From NCBI GenBank assembly GCA_919902485.1, contig CAKKRB010000240.1, positions 1 through 32,057 on the forward strand: a DNA stretch of 32,057 nt. Reading direction: 5' to 3'. Position numbers and translations under genes: made by a program. This document shows, in pieces, positions 3,328 through 32,057 of the stretch. The notes under the pieces were generated by a model. It made no database searches. It saw only the letters and a program-made list of their open reading frames with translations, and was not told where the DNA came from. The DNA comes from Omnitrophica bacterium GWA2_41_15. GTDB lineage: Bacteria; Omnitrophota; Gorgyraeia; Gorgyraeales; Gorgyraeaceae. Within the stretch, counting starts at the first letter, position 1, and each line of letters starts with the position of its first letter.

Positions 3328-3380
3328 CGTTAATTCACAAAACAAGTCATACTCGTTTTGTGAATTAACGGGATTTTTTT
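3328..3380 (+). terminator. Copy 2 of the 43-nt hairpin repeat followed by a T7 run; intrinsic-terminator-like element after mnmE
   Basis: The same 16-bp stem (3328-3343 / 3355-3370), then gga + ttttttt (3374-3380), then an A8 run. Confidence 0.6.
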
Positions 3381-3404: not shown

Positions 3405-3962
3405 ATGGACAAGGGTAAAATAAAGAAGGCAGTAAGGATGATTTTGGAAGCAGTTGGCGAAAACCCAAACAGGGAAGACCTTAAAAAAACGCCTGAAAGG
3501 GTAGCGGATATGTATGAGGAGATATTCAGCGGCATATCAAAGGATCCTGCAAGAGAATTAGAAGTGCTTCTGGCTGAAAAACACGATGAAATAGTGCTTT
3601 TAAAAGACATACCTTTATATTCTATATGCGAACACCATCTTTTGCCTTTCACAGGCAAAGCCCATATTGCTTATATACCTAAAAATAACAAGGTTACAGG
3701 CTTAAGCAAGATAACAAGAGTTCTAGAGATTCTTTCAAAGAGACTCCAGGTGCAGGAAAGACTTACAACTGAAGTAGCTGAAATACTCATGAAAAAACTA
3801 AAACCAATGGGCGTGATGGTTATTATAGAGGCAGAGCACCTTTGCATGAGCATGAGAGGGGTTAAAAAATCAGGTGTTTTAACAGTTACAAGCGCTGTGA
3901 GAGGTGTTTTTAAGGAAAATCAAAAAACAAGGGCAGAGACACTAGCCCTTATAAAGAGTTAA
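3405..3962 (+). CDS. folE: GTP cyclohydrolase I (FolE)
   Basis: 185 aa, CEHHLLPF active-site motif, strong GGAGAGGGGG Shine-Dalgarno region upstream. Confidence 0.92.
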   Translation: MDKGKIKKAVRMILEAVGENPNREDLKKTPERVADMYEEIFSGISKDPARELEVLLAEKHDEIVLLKDIPLYSICEHHLLPFTGKAHIAYIPKNNKVTGLSKITRVLEILSKRLQVQERLTTEVAEILMKKLKPMGVMVIIEAEHLCMSMRGVKKSGVLTVTSAVRGVFKENQKTRAETLALIKS

Positions 3963-17474: not shown

Positions 17475-18885
17475 AAATATAGGTATATACAGACAGGAAA
17501 GGCCGTCTTATTCAGAGAAAAAGCCGTATTTTCCTCCAGCTATTTTTGAAGAATACCCTTTTAATGACCGAAGTACAGATCAAAACAACTACGCATACAG
17601 CTCTATTAGAAATCTTCTTAAATTGCTAGAGCTTGATTCAGAAAATTTTGGGAAAAAATCCTGGAATCCTTTTGGATCTTTTATGAAACCAGGAGATACA
17701 GTATTGTTAAAGCCTAATCTTGTAAGGCATTTTTGCGAAAATGGAGATACAAAAGGACTTATGACCCATGGTTCTTTAATCAGGGCGGCGGCTGATTATG
17801 CTTATATAGCTTTGCAGGGAAAGGGCAGGATAATAATTGCTGATGGCCCTATGGATGACGCAGATTTTGAAAAAATAGCATCTATGTCAGGCATCTACGA
17901 AATCAGGGAATTCTACAAAGGCGAGACAGGTTTTGATATAGAGATATATGATTTGAGGCAGGAGATGGTTGTAAAAAAGCATGAAAAGATAGAGGAGAGA
18001 GTAAAGCTTGCAGGCGATCCTCTTGGATATAGCGCGGTAAATCTGGGGCCCATGAGCGCCTTTAAAAAAGGAGACCTGGATTATGCCTCTTTCAGAGGCT
18101 CTGAATGCAGGCCTGATATCATGTCCCTTCACCACAATAAAGAAAAGGACGAGTATTTAATCTCAAATACTTTTTTAAATGCAGACGTGGTTATAAATAT
18201 ACCTAAGATGAAGACTCACAAGAGGGCAGGCGTAACTCTTTCTCTTAAGAACCTGGTAGGTATTACAGGGGACAGGAATTGGCTGCCGCATTATAGTGAG
18301 AATGTGAGTTGTTCTAAAGTTCCACCCCGTAGGTGGCCAATTGGCCACCTACGGGGTGGAATTGAGGTTGTAAAGAATGCGATTGGGTTTATAAAACCTT
18401 TAAGAGACAGTTTAAGGCAGTTTACAGGTGTTACTGTATCTACAATGCGTTCAGGAAACTGGCATGGGAATGATATTATATGGCGCACTATCCTGGATCT
18501 CTGGAGAATAGCGTTATATGCAGATAAAAATGGAATAATGAGAAATGAAGAACAGAGAAAAACATTTGTAATAGTGGATGGCATTATTGGAGGAGAAGCA
18601 GACGGGCCTACAAACCCGACTGCTAAAAGATGCGGAGTCCTGGTAGCAGGATTCCACTGGCCTTCTGTGGATATTGCAGTAAGCCGCATCATGGGATTTG
18701 ATCCGATAAAGATCCCAAAATTTAAAGGATTTTCACATCTCGCGGACATACCCTGCGTGTCAAATATAAGAGAATGGGATAATAAAATTTCAGGATTTAA
18801 GGGCATGTGCCTGAATTTCAAACCGCATTATGGATGGAAAAAACATATAGAGGCTGACACAGATGTTAAAAAGCAAGATTTATAA
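17464..18885 (+). CDS. DUF362-domain protein (the ATG at 17464, with GGAGG 4 nt upstream, is preferred over the TTG at 17416)
   Basis: VLLKPNLV and INIPKMKTHKRAGVTLSLKNLVG motifs typical of DUF362. Contains an in-frame palindrome. Confidence 0.7.
   Translation: MDIKNIGIYRQERPSYSEKKPYFPPAIFEEYPFNDRSTDQNNYAYSSIRNLLKLLELDSENFGKKSWNPFGSFMKPGDTVLLKPNLVRHFCENGDTKGLMTHGSLIRAAADYAYIALQGKGRIIIADGPMDDADFEKIASMSGIYEIREFYKGETGFDIEIYDLRQEMVVKKHEKIEERVKLAGDPLGYSAVNLGPMSAFKKGDLDYASFRGSECRPDIMSLHHNKEKDEYLISNTFLNADVVINIPKMKTHKRAGVTLSLKNLVGITGDRNWLPHYSENVSCSKVPPRRWPIGHLRGGIEVVKNAIGFIKPLRDSLRQFTGVTVSTMRSGNWHGNDIIWRTILDLWRIALYADKNGIMRNEEQRKTFVIVDGIIGGEADGPTNPTAKRCGVLVAGFHWPSVDIAVSRIMGFDPIKIPKFKGFSHLADIPCVSNIREWDNKISGFKGMCLNFKPHYGWKKHIEADTDVKKQDL
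18320..18361. repeat. Perfect 42-nt palindrome inside the DUF362 CDS
   Basis: ttccaccccgtaggtggccaa|ttggccacctacggggtggaa, checked base by base. Both strands translate to PPRRWPIGHLRGG. Confidence 0.95.
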
Positions 18886-21335: not shown

Positions 21336-24300
21336 GAATTTTGATTACTACAACCTTAAATAAAAATATGACAGAGGCAAAGATAAAGCCGCTCTTGATG
21401 CTGCCTGAAGTGGAACAGGTATTCTATGTGTCTGACATGCCAGGCCCGTATTTTGAAAAAGTCAGATATTATTGCATGCCTGGCTGGATATTGAGATCCT
21501 GCAGGAATAATTCATTGGTAAGATGGACATATAAATTTTTTACAGCCGGATATCTGGCTTTATCCAAAAGACCAGATATGATTATGGGTTATGCATTGAT
21601 ACCTCACGGTATAAATGCGGTTTTAATAGGTAAATTGCTGAATATCCCTGTATGCGTAAATTTTATGGGCGGGAGTTTTTTAATAGAGAGCATAAATCCA
21701 TTATTGAGAAAGCTGGTTTTAAGAATAGCTGATATGGCAGACATAATCACTGTCACAGGCTCGCGCACCAGGGATTTACTTGTATCAAAAGGTATCAAAG
21801 CAGGCAAGATAAAAATAATATCCAGCACTATAGATACAAAAAGGTTTTTCCCGCAGCATCTGGATAAGCAATACGACATTATCGCAGTGGCTCAGTTGAA
21901 TCACGGCAAAAGAATAAGCATGTTTCTTGATATCATTTCCAGGCTTAAAAAATCCGGCATCAATTTGAAAGCTGTGATAGCAGGGGACGGCTGTTTAAAA
22001 AAAGACCTTGAGGAGTTATCAGAAAAAATAGGACTTCTGGAAAATGTATATTTTGCCGGATTCCAGCCTGATATTGAAAAATTTCTTAATGAGTCGAGGG
22101 TATTTTTGCTGCCTACGGCTCATGAAGGCTTGTCGCTTGCAATGCTTGAGGCAATGGCATGCGGGGTTGTGCCTGTTGTTTCAAACGTGGACAACCTTTC
22201 TGATGCGGTAAAAGACAGGTTTAGCGGAAGATTGATAGACAGGGATGATACAGAAGGGTTTGTTTCAGCTGTTTCTGAGTTATTAAAGGATAAAAGTATA
22301 TATGAAACTTATGCGAAAAATTCAGTTAATACTATAAATGAACTTTATACAATTAATAATGCGGCTCAAAAATGGACAGAGATTTTAAAACCCTCACCCC
22401 AACCCTCTCCCATAAATGGGAGAGGGAGATTGTATCATTGGTATTTTAAAAGGTTAATGGCTATGAGCGCCGAGGAGGTTATTTACAAGGCAATAGGGAT
22501 TTTAAGAAAGAAGATTTTATATTTTAAAGCAATCTCATTGGATAAGAAAATATTTTCATCTTCAATCAACAATAGAAAACCTGTATTTTTCATAGATAAA
22601 CAAGATCTGGATTTTATAAGAGAGAATATTAAAAGATCTGATTCTGTTACGCATCCCCTCACCCCTGCCCTCTCCCATAAATGGGAGAGGGGGGTTACTC
22701 TTTTAGATGACATAAAACGCAGGGCAGGCTTTTCTGATTTTGAAATCAGGGCAATATGGGAACCTAACAGGTTTCAGTGGTTTGTGAGTTATGCCCAGAT
22801 ATATGCCCTGGATAGAGATGAAAAAATAGCAAAAGATATAGTTGGTGTATTAAATGATTGGATATCAAGAAACCCATTTATGAAGACCTTGAACTGGATG
22901 GACAGTCTGGAGGTTTCTTTGCGGCTTTTATCCTGGTCATGGATATATTTTTTGATAAAAGATTCAAAATCTATGGATGTTGATTTTGAAAGAGTATTTT
23001 TGAAAAGCATATATCTGCATGCGGAGTTTATAAAAAACAACCTGTCTGGTTATTCATCTGCTAATAATCATCTGATAGGGGAAGCAGCAGGCCTGTTTGC
23101 GGCGGGTATCCTGTTTCCAGTATTCAAGGCGTCTTCTGCATGGACAAAGAAAGGCAAGTTTATACTTGAGAGGGAGATGATAAGACAGGTATATCCTGAC
23201 GGCGTGGATAAAGAGCAATCGAGCCATTATCATGAGTTTGTAATGGACTTGTATCTGATAGCGGTTATTCTGGCAAGAAAGAACAGCATTGTATTTTCAG
23301 AAGAAATGCTTTTAAGGCTGAACCGCATGGGTGAATTTTTGATAAGCATAATGGGCCAAAAAGGTAAAACCCTGTCCATAGGAGACAGCGATGACGGGGT
23401 TGCTTTAAAATTCGGGGTATCAGAAGAAGCGCAGAACGCCGTTTCTCTTATAAATACAGCCTGCATCCTGTTTAACAGGCCTGATTTTAAAATATGCGGA
23501 GATTATCTGGATGAAAAAAGCCTATGGTTAATGGGTTATGAAGGTTATGCCAAGTATTCTGCAATGGAAAAAGCTGATTCTAAGCAGGGATCAAAATGTT
23601 TTTCAGAAAGCGGTTATTATATCATGAGAAACAGGGAATTATGCATTAGCTTTGATTGCGGGGGTTTGGGTTATTTATCTCTTGCCAGCCATGGCCATGC
23701 AGACAGCCTGAGCATAAACCTGAACGTCTGGGAAATGCCTGTTTTTATAGATCCGGGCACGTACCTGTATCATTCATGCGGCAAGTGGAGGGATTATTTC
23801 CGCGGCACTTCAGCTCATAATACAATTAAGATTGACAAGCTGGATCAATCAGAGATAGAAGGGCCTTTCTTATGGGGTTATAAAGCCAGGTCTTTTCTCA
23901 AATACTGGTCCCAGAATTGCAGGATTGACAGGGTGTGCGGTTATCACACAGGCTATACGAGATTAAGCGACCCGGTTTCGCATGCCAGAGGTATTACATT
24001 CGATAAATATAATAATGAAATAGTGATAACAGACAGCATTTTTTCTAAAAAAAGACATCTTGTGGAGCAATTCTTTCATCTGCATCCGGATTGTTCTGTG
24101 GAACAATTAGATAGTCATTCATTCGAGATTATCAATGCAGCAGGGAACAGGCATGCCTGTTCCCTGCATATGGAAATAGACAAGGGCCTTGATTCGCATA
24201 TTTTAAAAGGCTCTGAGTCGCCTATTGCAGGGTGGTATTCTGATAAGTTTGGAGAAAAACAAAAAACAATCACAATTTGCAATAGCTCTTATTCAAAAGG

Positions 24301-24406
24301 CCAAAGAAATTTTATTACAAAGATAAAAATCTCTAACAATGTTATTGCGAGGAGCGGAGCGACGAAGCAATCTGAAAAGGAGATTGCTTCGCTTCGCTCG
24401 CAATGA
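21332..24406 (+). CDS. Fusion protein: N-terminal GT4 glycosyltransferase (about aa 1-350) and C-terminal heparinase II/III-like polysaccharide lyase (about aa 370-1005)
   Basis: GT part: HEGLSLAMLEAMACGVVPVVSNV. Lyase part: NNHLIGEAAGL and SHGHADSLSINL motifs. The junction and the 3' end are formed by palindromic elements. Confidence 0.8.
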   Translation: MRILITTTLNKNMTEAKIKPLLMLPEVEQVFYVSDMPGPYFEKVRYYCMPGWILRSCRNNSLVRWTYKFFTAGYLALSKRPDMIMGYALIPHGINAVLIGKLLNIPVCVNFMGGSFLIESINPLLRKLVLRIADMADIITVTGSRTRDLLVSKGIKAGKIKIISSTIDTKRFFPQHLDKQYDIIAVAQLNHGKRISMFLDIISRLKKSGINLKAVIAGDGCLKKDLEELSEKIGLLENVYFAGFQPDIEKFLNESRVFLLPTAHEGLSLAMLEAMACGVVPVVSNVDNLSDAVKDRFSGRLIDRDDTEGFVSAVSELLKDKSIYETYAKNSVNTINELYTINNAAQKWTEILKPSPQPSPINGRGRLYHWYFKRLMAMSAEEVIYKAIGILRKKILYFKAISLDKKIFSSSINNRKPVFFIDKQDLDFIRENIKRSDSVTHPLTPALSHKWERGVTLLDDIKRRAGFSDFEIRAIWEPNRFQWFVSYAQIYALDRDEKIAKDIVGVLNDWISRNPFMKTLNWMDSLEVSLRLLSWSWIYFLIKDSKSMDVDFERVFLKSIYLHAEFIKNNLSGYSSANNHLIGEAAGLFAAGILFPVFKASSAWTKKGKFILEREMIRQVYPDGVDKEQSSHYHEFVMDLYLIAVILARKNSIVFSEEMLLRLNRMGEFLISIMGQKGKTLSIGDSDDGVALKFGVSEEAQNAVSLINTACILFNRPDFKICGDYLDEKSLWLMGYEGYAKYSAMEKADSKQGSKCFSESGYYIMRNRELCISFDCGGLGYLSLASHGHADSLSINLNVWEMPVFIDPGTYLYHSCGKWRDYFRGTSAHNTIKIDKLDQSEIEGPFLWGYKARSFLKYWSQNCRIDRVCGYHTGYTRLSDPVSHARGITFDKYNNEIVITDSIFSKKRHLVEQFFHLHPDCSVEQLDSHSFEIINAAGNRHACSLHMEIDKGLDSHILKGSESPIAGWYSDKFGEKQKTITICNSSYSKGQRNFITKIKISNNVIARSGATKQSEKEIASLRSQ
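22391..22428 (+). repeat. GC-rich hairpin element, copy 1 (ccctcacccc aa ccctctccca-taaa-tgggagaggg), at the GT/lyase junction
   Basis: 10-bp stem 22403-22412 / 22417-22426. Encodes PSPQPSPINGRGR. Confidence 0.9.
22655..22693 (+). repeat. GC-rich hairpin element, copy 2, inside the lyase N-terminal region
   Basis: cccctcacccctg ccctctccca-taaa-tgggagaggg gg. The stem is identical to copy 1. Encodes PLTPALSHKWERG. Confidence 0.9.
24344..24404. repeat. Imperfect 61-nt GC-rich hairpin element spanning the 3' end and stop codon of the GT-lyase gene
   Basis: Outer 8 bp attgcgag/ctcgcaat, inner 10 bp gaagcaatct/agattgcttc, asymmetric internal loop, apical loop gaaaagg. Translates to ...ARSGATKQS... 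and LRFARNDK in two frames. Confidence 0.85.
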
Positions 24407-25685: not shown

Positions 25686-26890
25686 AGAAAAAAAATAAAG
25701 TTTTAATATTAGTAGAGAATTTATCAGTGCCGTTTGACAGGCGCGTATGGTTAGAGGCCAGGGCCTTTAAAGAGAAAGGTTTCGGGGTAAGTGTTATTTG
25801 CCCGCGCTTCAAAGCTGAAAGGGCTTTTGAAATACTGGAAGGCGTAAATATATACAGGTATAGCGCCCCGCTTTCTACCAGAGGCTTATTAAGCTATATA
25901 ATGGAATTTTCATATTGTTTCATAATGACTTTTTTATTAAGCATGCGGGCGCTTTTAACGCATGGTTTTGATTATGTGCATGCGTGCAATCCGCCAGACA
26001 CATTTTTTATTATAGGTATGTTTTACAGGGTTTTCGGAAAAAGATTCGTATTCGACCAGCATGACCTATGTCCAGAGGTATATCTTGCAAAATACGGAGA
26101 GCATAAAAAAGATTTTTTTTACACAGCGCTTTTATTACTGGAATACCTGACCTATAAAACAGCATACAGGGTTATCGTAACGAATAAATCATATGAAGCA
26201 ATTGCGATATCCAGAGGCAGGCTGGATCCAGGGAAGGTTTTCGTTGTAAGAACCGGCCCTGATCTAAACAGGTTAAGGCAGGCAGTTTCTGTTCCTGAGC
26301 TAAAAGCAGGAAAAAGATTTCTTGTCTCATATCTGGGAGTCATGGCTTTGCAGGACGGCGTAGATTATTTTATACGAGCCATAGACATTATTGTGAATAA
26401 GCATAAGCGCAGCGATATCTTATTCAGTTTAATAGGAAGCGGAGATACTATAGAGGATTTGAAAAAGATGAAAGATGACCTGGGTCTTGGCAGATCAGTG
26501 GTATTTACAGACAGGGTTTCGGACGATAAACTTGTAAATTATCTTTCAGGTTCGGATGTCTGCATAGCGCCTGATCCTAAAAATGCCCTGAATGATAAAT
26601 CAACCATGAACAAGATCCTGGAATATATGGCAATGGCAAAACCCATAGTTTCTTTTGACTTAAAAGAGGCCAGGTATTCTGCGGGAGATGCGGCGTTGTA
26701 CGCAGAACCTAATAACGTACAGGATTTTGCAGATAAAATACTGGAGCTCCTGGCTGATCCGGAAAAGAGAAGAATAATGGGCGGCATCGGTTACGAAAGG
26801 TTAAAAGGCGAATTATCCTGGGAATATAACAAAAAGAGGCTGATAGATGTTTATACAGTTAAAGAATGTCATACTTTCAATGTTAGGTAA
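25682..26890 (+). CDS. GT4-family glycosyltransferase (WbuB-like)
   Basis: N-terminus KVLILVENLSVPFDRRVW and C-terminal ...KILEYMAMAKPIVSFDL... typical of this GT4 subgroup. Confidence 0.8.
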   Translation: MKKKNKVLILVENLSVPFDRRVWLEARAFKEKGFGVSVICPRFKAERAFEILEGVNIYRYSAPLSTRGLLSYIMEFSYCFIMTFLLSMRALLTHGFDYVHACNPPDTFFIIGMFYRVFGKRFVFDQHDLCPEVYLAKYGEHKKDFFYTALLLLEYLTYKTAYRVIVTNKSYEAIAISRGRLDPGKVFVVRTGPDLNRLRQAVSVPELKAGKRFLVSYLGVMALQDGVDYFIRAIDIIVNKHKRSDILFSLIGSGDTIEDLKKMKDDLGLGRSVVFTDRVSDDKLVNYLSGSDVCIAPDPKNALNDKSTMNKILEYMAMAKPIVSFDLKEARYSAGDAALYAEPNNVQDFADKILELLADPEKRRIMGGIGYERLKGELSWEYNKKRLIDVYTVKECHTFNVR

Positions 26891-26904
26891 CACTAATTAT
26901 TCTC

Positions 26905-27286
26905 GCCAGCCCTGGCAGGTTTTGAGAAAGGCCTCGCCGATTCAAGCGGGCACGGTGCCCTGCCTCCAGCCTGGGGCCGTTCGGCACAGAGATGCTTTCG
27001 GCGTGCGCTACGGTTTACAGCTAGTTTTTTATACTGAAGGTAGTCTTGACAGTATAAAAAACTTCGCCGTAATCCCTTGCGCACTTATATTCAAAAGAAT
27101 CAATTATGCCGAAACCTCTCAAATGTGCCTCAGACCCCAGCCTGCACAGGGCGAGCGACCCTTCGACAAGTGGTTCGACAGGGCTCACCACCTTGAACCA
27201 TCCTGAGCGAAGTCGAAGGGGCTCAGGGTTCTTAGAGTCCCGAGCGAAGCCGAGGGACGTCTTTTCGAAAACCTGCCAGGGCTGGC
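26905..27286 (+). repeat. Copy B (complete) of the ~380-nt GC-rich structured element with perfect 19-bp terminal inverted repeats; MITE-like element or structured ncRNA gene
   Basis: gccagccctggcaggtttt (26905-26923) is the exact reverse complement of aaaacctgccagggctggc (27268-27286). The interior aligns to copy A. No plausible coding capacity. Confidence 0.9.
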
Positions 27287-30826: not shown

Positions 30827-30857
30827 TGCAGGGGAGGGTTTTAAACCCTCCCCTGCA
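30827..30857. repeat. GC-rich palindromic hairpin (tgcaggggaggg-ttttaaa-ccctcccctgca) after the priming transferase gene; terminator-like or a member of the small-palindrome family
   Basis: 12-bp perfect stem 30827-30838 / 30846-30857. Shares the GGTTTTAAACC core with 690-718. No T-run follows. Confidence 0.8.
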
Positions 30858-32046: not shown

Positions 32047-32057
32047 AGCCAGCCCTG
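32047..32057 (+). repeat. Probable start of a third copy (C) of the large element, cut by the window edge
   Basis: gccagccctg matches the first 10 nt of the left terminal repeat at 26905-26914. Only 10-11 nt are visible. Confidence 0.4.

Follow-up and report, generated by a model that had tools for sequence, protein, structure and literature searches.

Bacterial interspersed mosaic elements (BIMEs) and BOX, ERIC, and Correia elements are intergenic mosaics of separable modules that occur in either orientation and are co-transcribed with their neighbors; fungal mitochondria harbor mobile GC clusters and double-hairpin elements, and intervening sequences occupy helices of rRNA. REPINs, which are also palindromic, are about 100 nt in length. 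REP and REPIN elements are mobilized by RAYT transposases (Bertels and Rainey 2011, PMC3116915; PMC3337134); compensatory changes across the REPIN hairpin are common, and its middle is constrained mainly by the ability to pair (PMC3116915). REPINs are reported to persist over long times and to pass on mostly by vertical inheritance (10.1101/2022.05.22.493013). Rickettsia palindromic elements (RPEs) are small palindromes that enter intergenic DNA, RNA genes, and, in frame, genes for proteins; in R. felis, 728 RPEs are recorded, 85 of them in ORFs and three in RNA genes (PMC1166351).

The window, that is, the whole 32,057-nt stretch of DNA analyzed here, contains two copies of a repeat (copies A and B) that carry unrelated hairpins at one and the same position. 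Both loci probably belong to a palindromic, non-autonomous repeat interspersed in Omnitrophota genomes; its functional form would be a long single-stranded hairpin, and the genomes contain several palindromic families of this kind, nested within one another. We accordingly read the locus as selfish DNA made of nested palindromes, akin to REPINs, BIMEs, or RPEs, in which the AT-rich hairpin of copy B is the native tip of the repeat and the GC-rich hairpin of copy A a foreign palindrome that replaced such a tip. The features concerned are as follows; no strand is assigned to any of them.

1–198: copy A, the core palindromic repeat (nhmmer match at 2–198; aligned to copy B and L111), its 5′ end cut by the window start.
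56–108: GC-rich hairpin that forms the copy A tip (stems 56–68 and 96–108, 27-nt loop), read as a foreign mini-palindrome replacing the usual tip.
199–385: right arm of the outer palindromic element around copy A (from sequence and alignment), stopping 4 nt before the folC start codon (390).
26872–26893: outermost inverted-repeat arm, TACTTTCAATGTTAGGTAACAC, which recurs upstream of many copies, with its complement downstream.
26905–27286: copy B, the complete composite of the outer palindromic element around the core (from its 31-nt inverted repeat and its fold).
26965–27153: copy B core, a rod-like imperfect palindrome of about 190 nt (nhmmer, 185 bits; covariation counts).
27003–27021: left strands of the inner helices, GTGCGC (27003–27008) and GGTTTACAGC (27012–27021), from folding and covariation.
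27023–27063: AT-rich hairpin with a 14-bp stem and a 13-nt loop, the standard tip in the largest subfamily of cores.
27066–27084: right strands of the inner helices, GCCGTAATCC (27066–27075) and GCGCAC (27079–27084), from folding and covariation.
27159–27258: GC-rich insert nested within the outer element's right arm (CCCTTCGACAAG...GAGCGAAGTCGAAGG...GAGGGAC), missing at the same position in L022, L027, and L035.
32048–32057: first 10 nt (GCCAGCCCTG) of the left arm of the outer element, from a further copy cut by the window end (by comparison with L111).

Direct reading bears out the original prediction that perfect hairpins occupy the same position in two repeat copies. In copy B, gttttttatactg (27024–27036) pairs with cagtataaaaaac (27050–27062) across a 13-nt loop, and an additional A27023–T27063 pair lengthens the stem to 14 bp; in copy A, ccccacacccaga (56–68) and tctgggtgtgggg (96–108) form a perfect 13-bp stem around a 27-nt loop. 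The flanks, predicted to be about 90–98% identical, are indeed repeats, with 88% identity over 52 nt on the left and 98% over 197 nt on the right, and the swapped segment has the same borders to the nucleotide in both copies: GGCT(C/A) / hairpin / TTCGCCGTAAT. Perfect hairpins with stems of at least 10 bp number 13 in the window, as compared with 0.8 in shuffles, and the two hairpins fold better than shuffled sequence both as RNA (z of −5.2 and −4.0) and as DNA (z of −6.2 and −4.3). L111, an independent contig from the same series of samples, has a full-length copy with this GC hairpin in the matching position; the hairpin of copy A is therefore not an assembly artifact.

The core is present in many copies. 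A scan of one genome per species with the exact 21-mer to the left of the hairpin recovered 53 loci in 21 MAGs, with up to 15 loci in a single genome; nearly all of these MAGs are labeled Candidatus Omnitrophota, and a few are labeled Planctomycetales, Planctomycetia, or just bacterium. A search with an nhmmer profile built from 43 cores identified more divergent copies, also in genomes with a single exact 21-mer match, and several of these are inverted pairs 100–250 nt apart. A single-copy housekeeping RNA (6S-like or SRP-like) was considered and rejected, given the several divergent copies even in genomes with one exact match and the existence of short variants lacking the central bubble. 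The closing stem of the core (xxCAGGCTGGGGCC / GGCCCCAGCCTGxx) is followed inward by GGCAC/GTGCC, GAGA/TCTC, and GGTTTCG/CGAAACC; inside the last of these is a 23-nt loop on the 3′ side only, and innermost are GTGCGC/GCGCAC, then GGTTTACRGC/GCYGTAATCC, and then the tip.

Over 43 distinct cores, 81.6% of cells are paired, as compared with 37–46% when partners are slid; two-sided changes occur at 47 of the 74 core pairs, the covariation score is 0.227 (at most 0.134 in slid versions), and none of 500 shuffles reached the observed values. The predicted conservation of structure around the hairpin thus holds, in that the scaffold is paired and is kept so by compensatory change. One of the two enclosing helices originally proposed, gtgcgc/gcgcac, stands as drawn, and a divergent copy in L054 lends it support with the doubly compensated variant GTCTGC/GCAGAC, as seen directly in the sequence. 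The other, tacgg/ccgta, is present in the sequence, but a different register is preferred, in which GGTTTACRGC (27012–27021) pairs with GCYGTAATCC (27066–27075); this register is favored by folding and by the only two-sided change, with R27019 facing Y27068 as G-C in 35 cores, A-U in five, G-U in one, and other combinations in two. TACGG is found twice on the left arm, so that the tacgg/ccgta pairing may still form.

Covariation of this strength also speaks for a rival reading, which we regard as unlikely, in which the core is a functional structured RNA (a cis stabilizer, processing site, or attenuator on mRNAs, or a multi-copy small RNA) and the tip is a peripheral, fast-evolving stem that would tolerate any stable hairpin. 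Sequence conservation points in the same direction: one pair of cores from different species is 99% identical, while FolC is 67–69% identical between species, and the high conservation of cores across species includes unpaired positions. Cores are far better conserved than would be expected of neutral DNA, which counts against a mobile element. Core subfamilies cross species boundaries, and copies with the same neighbors can differ in subfamily. Neighboring genes are themselves shared by copies in several species, again in favor of an RNA and against mobility. In the window, L025, and L045, folC has a core immediately before it (intergenic position checked); L012, L016, L043, and L051 have two neighbor ORFs in common, which we take from their sequences to be IMP-dehydrogenase-like and DnaE-like, and L018, L019, and L029 share another two, presumably ScpA-like and IF-2-like, likewise named from sequence. 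For these shared neighbors, selection for a host function fits as well as REPIN-like persistence does.

The two strands differ consistently in folding energy, the reverse-complement RNA being about 7 kcal/mol more stable on average (39 of 43 copies); this difference would suit a structured RNA and could be a pointer to a functional strand. Against an RNA stand the orientation of copies relative to neighboring genes, which is without bias (same/same 15, opposite/opposite 13), and the absence of asymmetry between G·T (G·U in RNA) and A·C mismatches (96 vs 75). Because the wobble count and the folding energy disagree on strand, none was assigned above. A promoter and terminator scan of the element found neither, and there is no conserved sequence beyond the minimal copies. 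Rfam also offers no family for the element: no covariance model of Rfam 15 matched the window at its gathering score, and a search of copy B with E up to 10 returned only chance-level matches, with E of at least 0.44 (e.g., PreQ1 at the AT stem, E = 0.44). The mosaic nesting of the repeats and their direct-repeat-flanked inserts, described below, are DNA-level events and likewise weigh against an RNA.

The core has several likenesses to REPINs. As in REPINs, it is a short, non-coding, extragenic palindrome with many copies per genome, a long-hairpin fold, and compensatory changes, and inverted core doublets in L052, L054, and L055 resemble REP doublets. It differs from REPINs in its length (roughly twice that given above), in its large asymmetric internal loops and distinct tip domain, and in occurring in another phylum. 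In addition, neither a RAYT gene nor another HUH gene turned up beside the core copies, and no cognate single-copy RAYT gene flanked by repeats was seen at the loci, though a distant RAYT gene is possible. ORF clustering across 53 loci in 21 genomes identified no transposase or recurrent gene beside the copies, only shared housekeeping neighbors, and tblastn with an IS200 TnpA query returned nothing significant in 786 kb of retrieved DNA. The combination of long persistence, strong conservation, and no adjacent transposase is closest to the pattern reported for REPINs (PMC3116915). A 172-aa ORF (L019, 358–876, minus strand) lies between inverted cores at 101–256 and 1084–1231; it matched no Pfam family.

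With its conserved bulges and variable tip, the imperfect palindrome also recalls the folded recombination sites of integrons, and cores might on that account be sites of the attC type with a variable terminal structure. We consider this highly improbable: copies do not occur one per cassette and are instead scattered among housekeeping genes in both orientations, adjacent copies are often mutually inverted, and no recurrent neighbor gene family provides a candidate integrase beside them.

The core is a unit of its own, occurring with or without the outer element, which in turn occurs without the core. Among the 56 copies with the exact 21-mer, the outer element flanks both sides in 12 and neither side in 25; it is found alone, with no core, in L023 and L051. 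The composite of copy B fills the intergenic gap, and the whole region folds at z = −8.45. It has a 31-nt terminal inverted repeat (26905–26935 with 27256–27286, 84% complementary). Classical MITEs, which derive from DDE transposons, combine such repeats with a target-site duplication of fixed length; no clear duplication was found around either the composite element or the GC hairpin, and 5-bp direct repeats flank two small nested hairpins described below. Farther out, the arm at 26872–26893 gives the upstream gene its last codons and stop codon. The outer arm of copy A contains a nested GC-rich insert at about 205–304, as that of copy B does at 27159–27258. Both inserts are built of GAGCGAAG(T/C)CGA(A/G)GG-type motifs, and a reverse-complement fragment of these sits in frame within folC; similar motifs appear as spurious “…LSEVEG…/…FDKLRANG…” ORFs in many uncultured phyla.

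Individual copies also contain private perfect hairpins at other positions, two of which have 5-bp direct repeats on either side: CGTGC / CCCGCCCTTTTGACAAAGTCAAAAGGGCGGGA / CGTGC in L111, and a hairpin between CGAGC repeats in L010. Like BIMEs and BOX, ERIC, and Correia elements, then, the core repeats are intergenic, modular mosaics found in either orientation. They differ from these in that the modules are concentric, palindrome within palindrome, rather than side by side, and in that one module is also found in an RNA gene. Both ends of the window (position 1 and 32048–32057) fall inside copies of the composite repeat. In L111, the full element with the GC hairpin follows a gene homologous to the last gene of the window; copy A may continue the 3′ end, if the assembly was looped or circular or if it broke at the repeat.

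Within the family, no other part varies as much as the tip. The most abundant core subfamily ordinarily ends in the AT hairpin of copy B, which is present in 29 of the 56 exact-21-mer copies; other tip types account for 7, 4, 3, 3, and 2 copies, seven tips are singular, and the GC hairpin occurs in one. Variants of the AT stem are compensated (ACTG/CAGT, ACCG/CGGT, ACTA/TAGT) and its loop is conserved, and no AT hairpin was seen outside cores in the 786 kb of retrieved DNA. Of 13 tip types, only three (the AT and GC hairpins and a single further type) folded better than shuffles, the remaining ten giving z between −0.8 and +0.9. In most other subfamilies, the tip is about 40 nt long and folds no better than shuffled sequence; a conserved 13-bp helix is therefore not a feature of the family, and the proposal of a conserved helix with replaced sequence fails for ten of the 13 tip types.

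The non-AT tips do share a motif, GACT(A/T)(A/T)CG, located 13–15 nt into the tip. It is present in 11 distinct tip sequences, with near-variants in others, and was noted in core tips of L009, L012, L019, L020, L022, L031, L035, L038–L040, L042, and L053; it is found in 4.6% of shuffled tips on either strand. The AT loop contains GACTACC on the opposite strand (a post hoc observation), and copy A and L111 are without the motif. Where the hairpin ends, the motif might serve as a site for recognition or nicking; its retention in most subfamily tips would also suit a structured RNA. Tip type follows scaffold subfamily, with all type-2 tips found on the GAAAC/GTTTC scaffold, with R = A and CTCGCTGTAAA. 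Given the shared motif, the weak folding, and this tracking of scaffold by tip, the diversity of tips among subfamilies seems to reflect ordinary divergence in a terminal domain that is only loosely structured, and the non-AT tips look, from their sequences, like diverged homologs rather than swapped modules. The only clear swap within one scaffold subfamily is the GC hairpin.

This census bears directly on the suggestion that the tip is a programmable, specificity-determining arm, for guide or target recognition, on a constant scaffold. The suggestion drew on the constant scaffold and very different tips of the two window copies, and the subfamilies do differ in tip type. It fails because there is no family-wide helix (the majority of tips are not stable helices), because within a subfamily the tip stays the same at many loci and in many species, and because no target-like matches were found: the longest matches of the loops and hairpin stems to the rest of the window are 10–11 nt, no better than those of shuffled queries. 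No effector gene recurs near the copies. Scaffolds of known guide RNAs (the omega RNA of IscB/TnpB and the IS110 bridge RNA) provide no closer parallel, as there is no recurrent neighbor ORF here, and the tips lack the variability and the matches within the window expected of guides. A programmable arm is thus already largely refuted, and we give it very little credence.

The identity of the GC stem in 61 unrelated places is a further argument against such an arm. A metagenome scan for the 12-nt arms of the stem (CCCACACCCAGA-N10-40-TCTGGGTGTGGG) identified it in 61 contigs with 59 distinct interiors; among cores, it is present only in copy A and L111. Upstream of folC, the orthologous position in two further species (L025 and L045) is occupied by a core with the AT tip. 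Neither the AT nor the GC hairpin was found in viral contigs. In about 50 of the 61 contigs, the stem is central in a second palindromic scaffold, …TAAGTGAGG(hairpin)CGAAyTTAC(GC hairpin)GTaAgTTCG(hairpin)GCTCATTTAA; L055 has this second scaffold and two core copies on one contig. Elsewhere, the stem stands alone (L062) or beside TTATCCACA (L078, L087, and L094). The GC hairpin is therefore a member of a different and far more widespread palindrome family, whose usual home is the center of a second repeat. The original prediction had named nested insertion as its alternative, to be indicated by an independent small palindrome found elsewhere on its own; the 61 other contigs, with their unrelated contexts, are just such a finding, and they argue for replacement by an independent palindrome over a specificity arm.

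The second repeat family (L055–L115; e.g., L055 4150–4345, L105, and L114) comprises three hairpins and an outer stem, TAAGTGAG/CTCATTTA. It stops directly before the GGAGG-ATG of the downstream gene, always immediately upstream of GGAGG-N-ATG and in a single, fixed orientation, and its outer stem has G·U-type pairs on the sense strand. The family may be a 5′-UTR or intercistronic RNA element. A hammerhead-like reading of the scaffold (…TGAG(stem)CGAA…) was rejected by eye, as the CUGA core is missing.

The GC stem also lies inside two RNase P RNA genes. In L079 (1077–1465, minus strand; RF00010, 196 bits), the CCCCACACCCAG stem forms P3, P9, and P12; in a related gene in L077 (1745–2239; 137 bits), it forms P9 only, P3 being ordinary and P12 missing. 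The helix names are our own assignment from the Rfam alignment. The two homologous genes thus differ in presence and absence of the stem. Here, the GC hairpin is certainly transcribed, and it is tolerated within RNase P RNA, a point that would favor a structured-RNA reading of the core as well. We know of no report of one identical stem in three helices of a single ribozyme, and the literature searched had nothing relevant on palindromic repeats of Omnitrophota or on RNase P RNAs with palindromic inserts.

Placement of small palindromes in intergenic DNA, in frame in FolC, and in RNase P RNA resembles the distribution of RPEs. The resemblance is behavioral only, and membership in an RPE family is unlikely: there is no visible sequence relationship, the phylum is a different one, and the GC hairpin is much shorter (about 45–55 nt) and replaces whole helices rather than adding a domain. 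The mobile GC clusters of fungal mitochondria are similar in being GC-rich palindromes of an AT-rich genome (the window is 39% GC) that occupy intergenic DNA and variable RNA helices; they and the rRNA intervening sequences differ in their organellar or rRNA setting, and their sequences are unrelated.

What remains new as compared with these systems is the exact replacement of helices at their base, with no duplication or remnant, in the core tip and in P3, P9, and P12 of RNase P RNA. It is conceivable, though doubtful, that the GC palindrome (stem CCCCACACCCAGA) acts as a “helix cassette” that replaces whole hairpins at the base in unrelated structured scaffolds, namely the Omnitrophota core tip, the center of the second repeat, and P3, P9, and P12 of one RNase P RNA. 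If true, this would imply structure-directed insertion or exchange aimed at hairpin tips, which to our knowledge is undescribed for bacterial mobile DNA; an alternative implication would be a shared RNA-level function of the GC stem, such as a common binding protein.

For the core itself, the preferred reading of nested mobile DNA would involve spread at the DNA level by a hairpin-recognizing enzyme acting in trans, and the tip of an extruded hairpin would be free of constraint as well as favored for landing or exchange. In this view, the GC palindrome would have replaced the core tip exactly at the helix base in the lineage of the window. The GC hairpin lacks a target-site duplication, and nothing is left of the AT hairpin; simple insertion does not account for so precise a replacement. 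The old perfect palindrome may first have been excised and the new one then inserted, or gene conversion may have brought about the swap.

Other palindromes are found throughout the window. Within the folC ORF (390–1856), positions 690–718 and 1034–1062 contain a perfect palindrome of 13 bp (GTAGGGAACGGTT tta AACCGTTCCCTAC) and a repeat motif rich in GC. In-frame inserts of 8 and 15 aa in FolC match the 690–718 and 1034–1062 repeats and are absent from the orthologs in L025 and L045; in-frame palindromes of this kind are a further likeness to RPEs. Another hairpin (1816–1858) encodes the final 17 residues of FolC and is identical to one at 3328–3370 (16-bp stem, CGTTAATTCACAAAAC…GTTTTGTGAATTAACG). 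The first of these ends 6 nt before a start codon at 1865, and the second 34 nt before the start of an ORF at 3405; the position of the former recalls that of the second repeat family, whose end abuts ribosome-binding sites. Six further perfect GC-rich hairpins (18320–18361, 22403–22426, 22668–22691, 24140–24167, 24363–24391, and 30827–30857) have stems of 10–19 bp, several within long ORFs, and some have a GYAGGG…TTTAAA…CCCTRC pattern in common.

The swapped tip looks like mobile-DNA nesting rather than a programmable RNA arm, and it carries a caution: the same structure with different sequence in two copies does not amount to a programmable module, and a family-wide census is needed first. 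These repeat families come from Omnitrophota, a poorly known phylum without cultured models, and were not found described in Rfam or in the literature searched. Assemblies break at such repeats, and gene calls are extended or interrupted by them; in the present case, stop codons, C-terminal tails, and in-frame inserts come from the repeats. The locus is also a clear natural example of palindromes nested in palindromes, and one mini-palindrome is tolerated in three helices of an essential ribozyme. Together, this nesting and the RNase P case are useful for understanding how structured RNAs gain peripheral helices.
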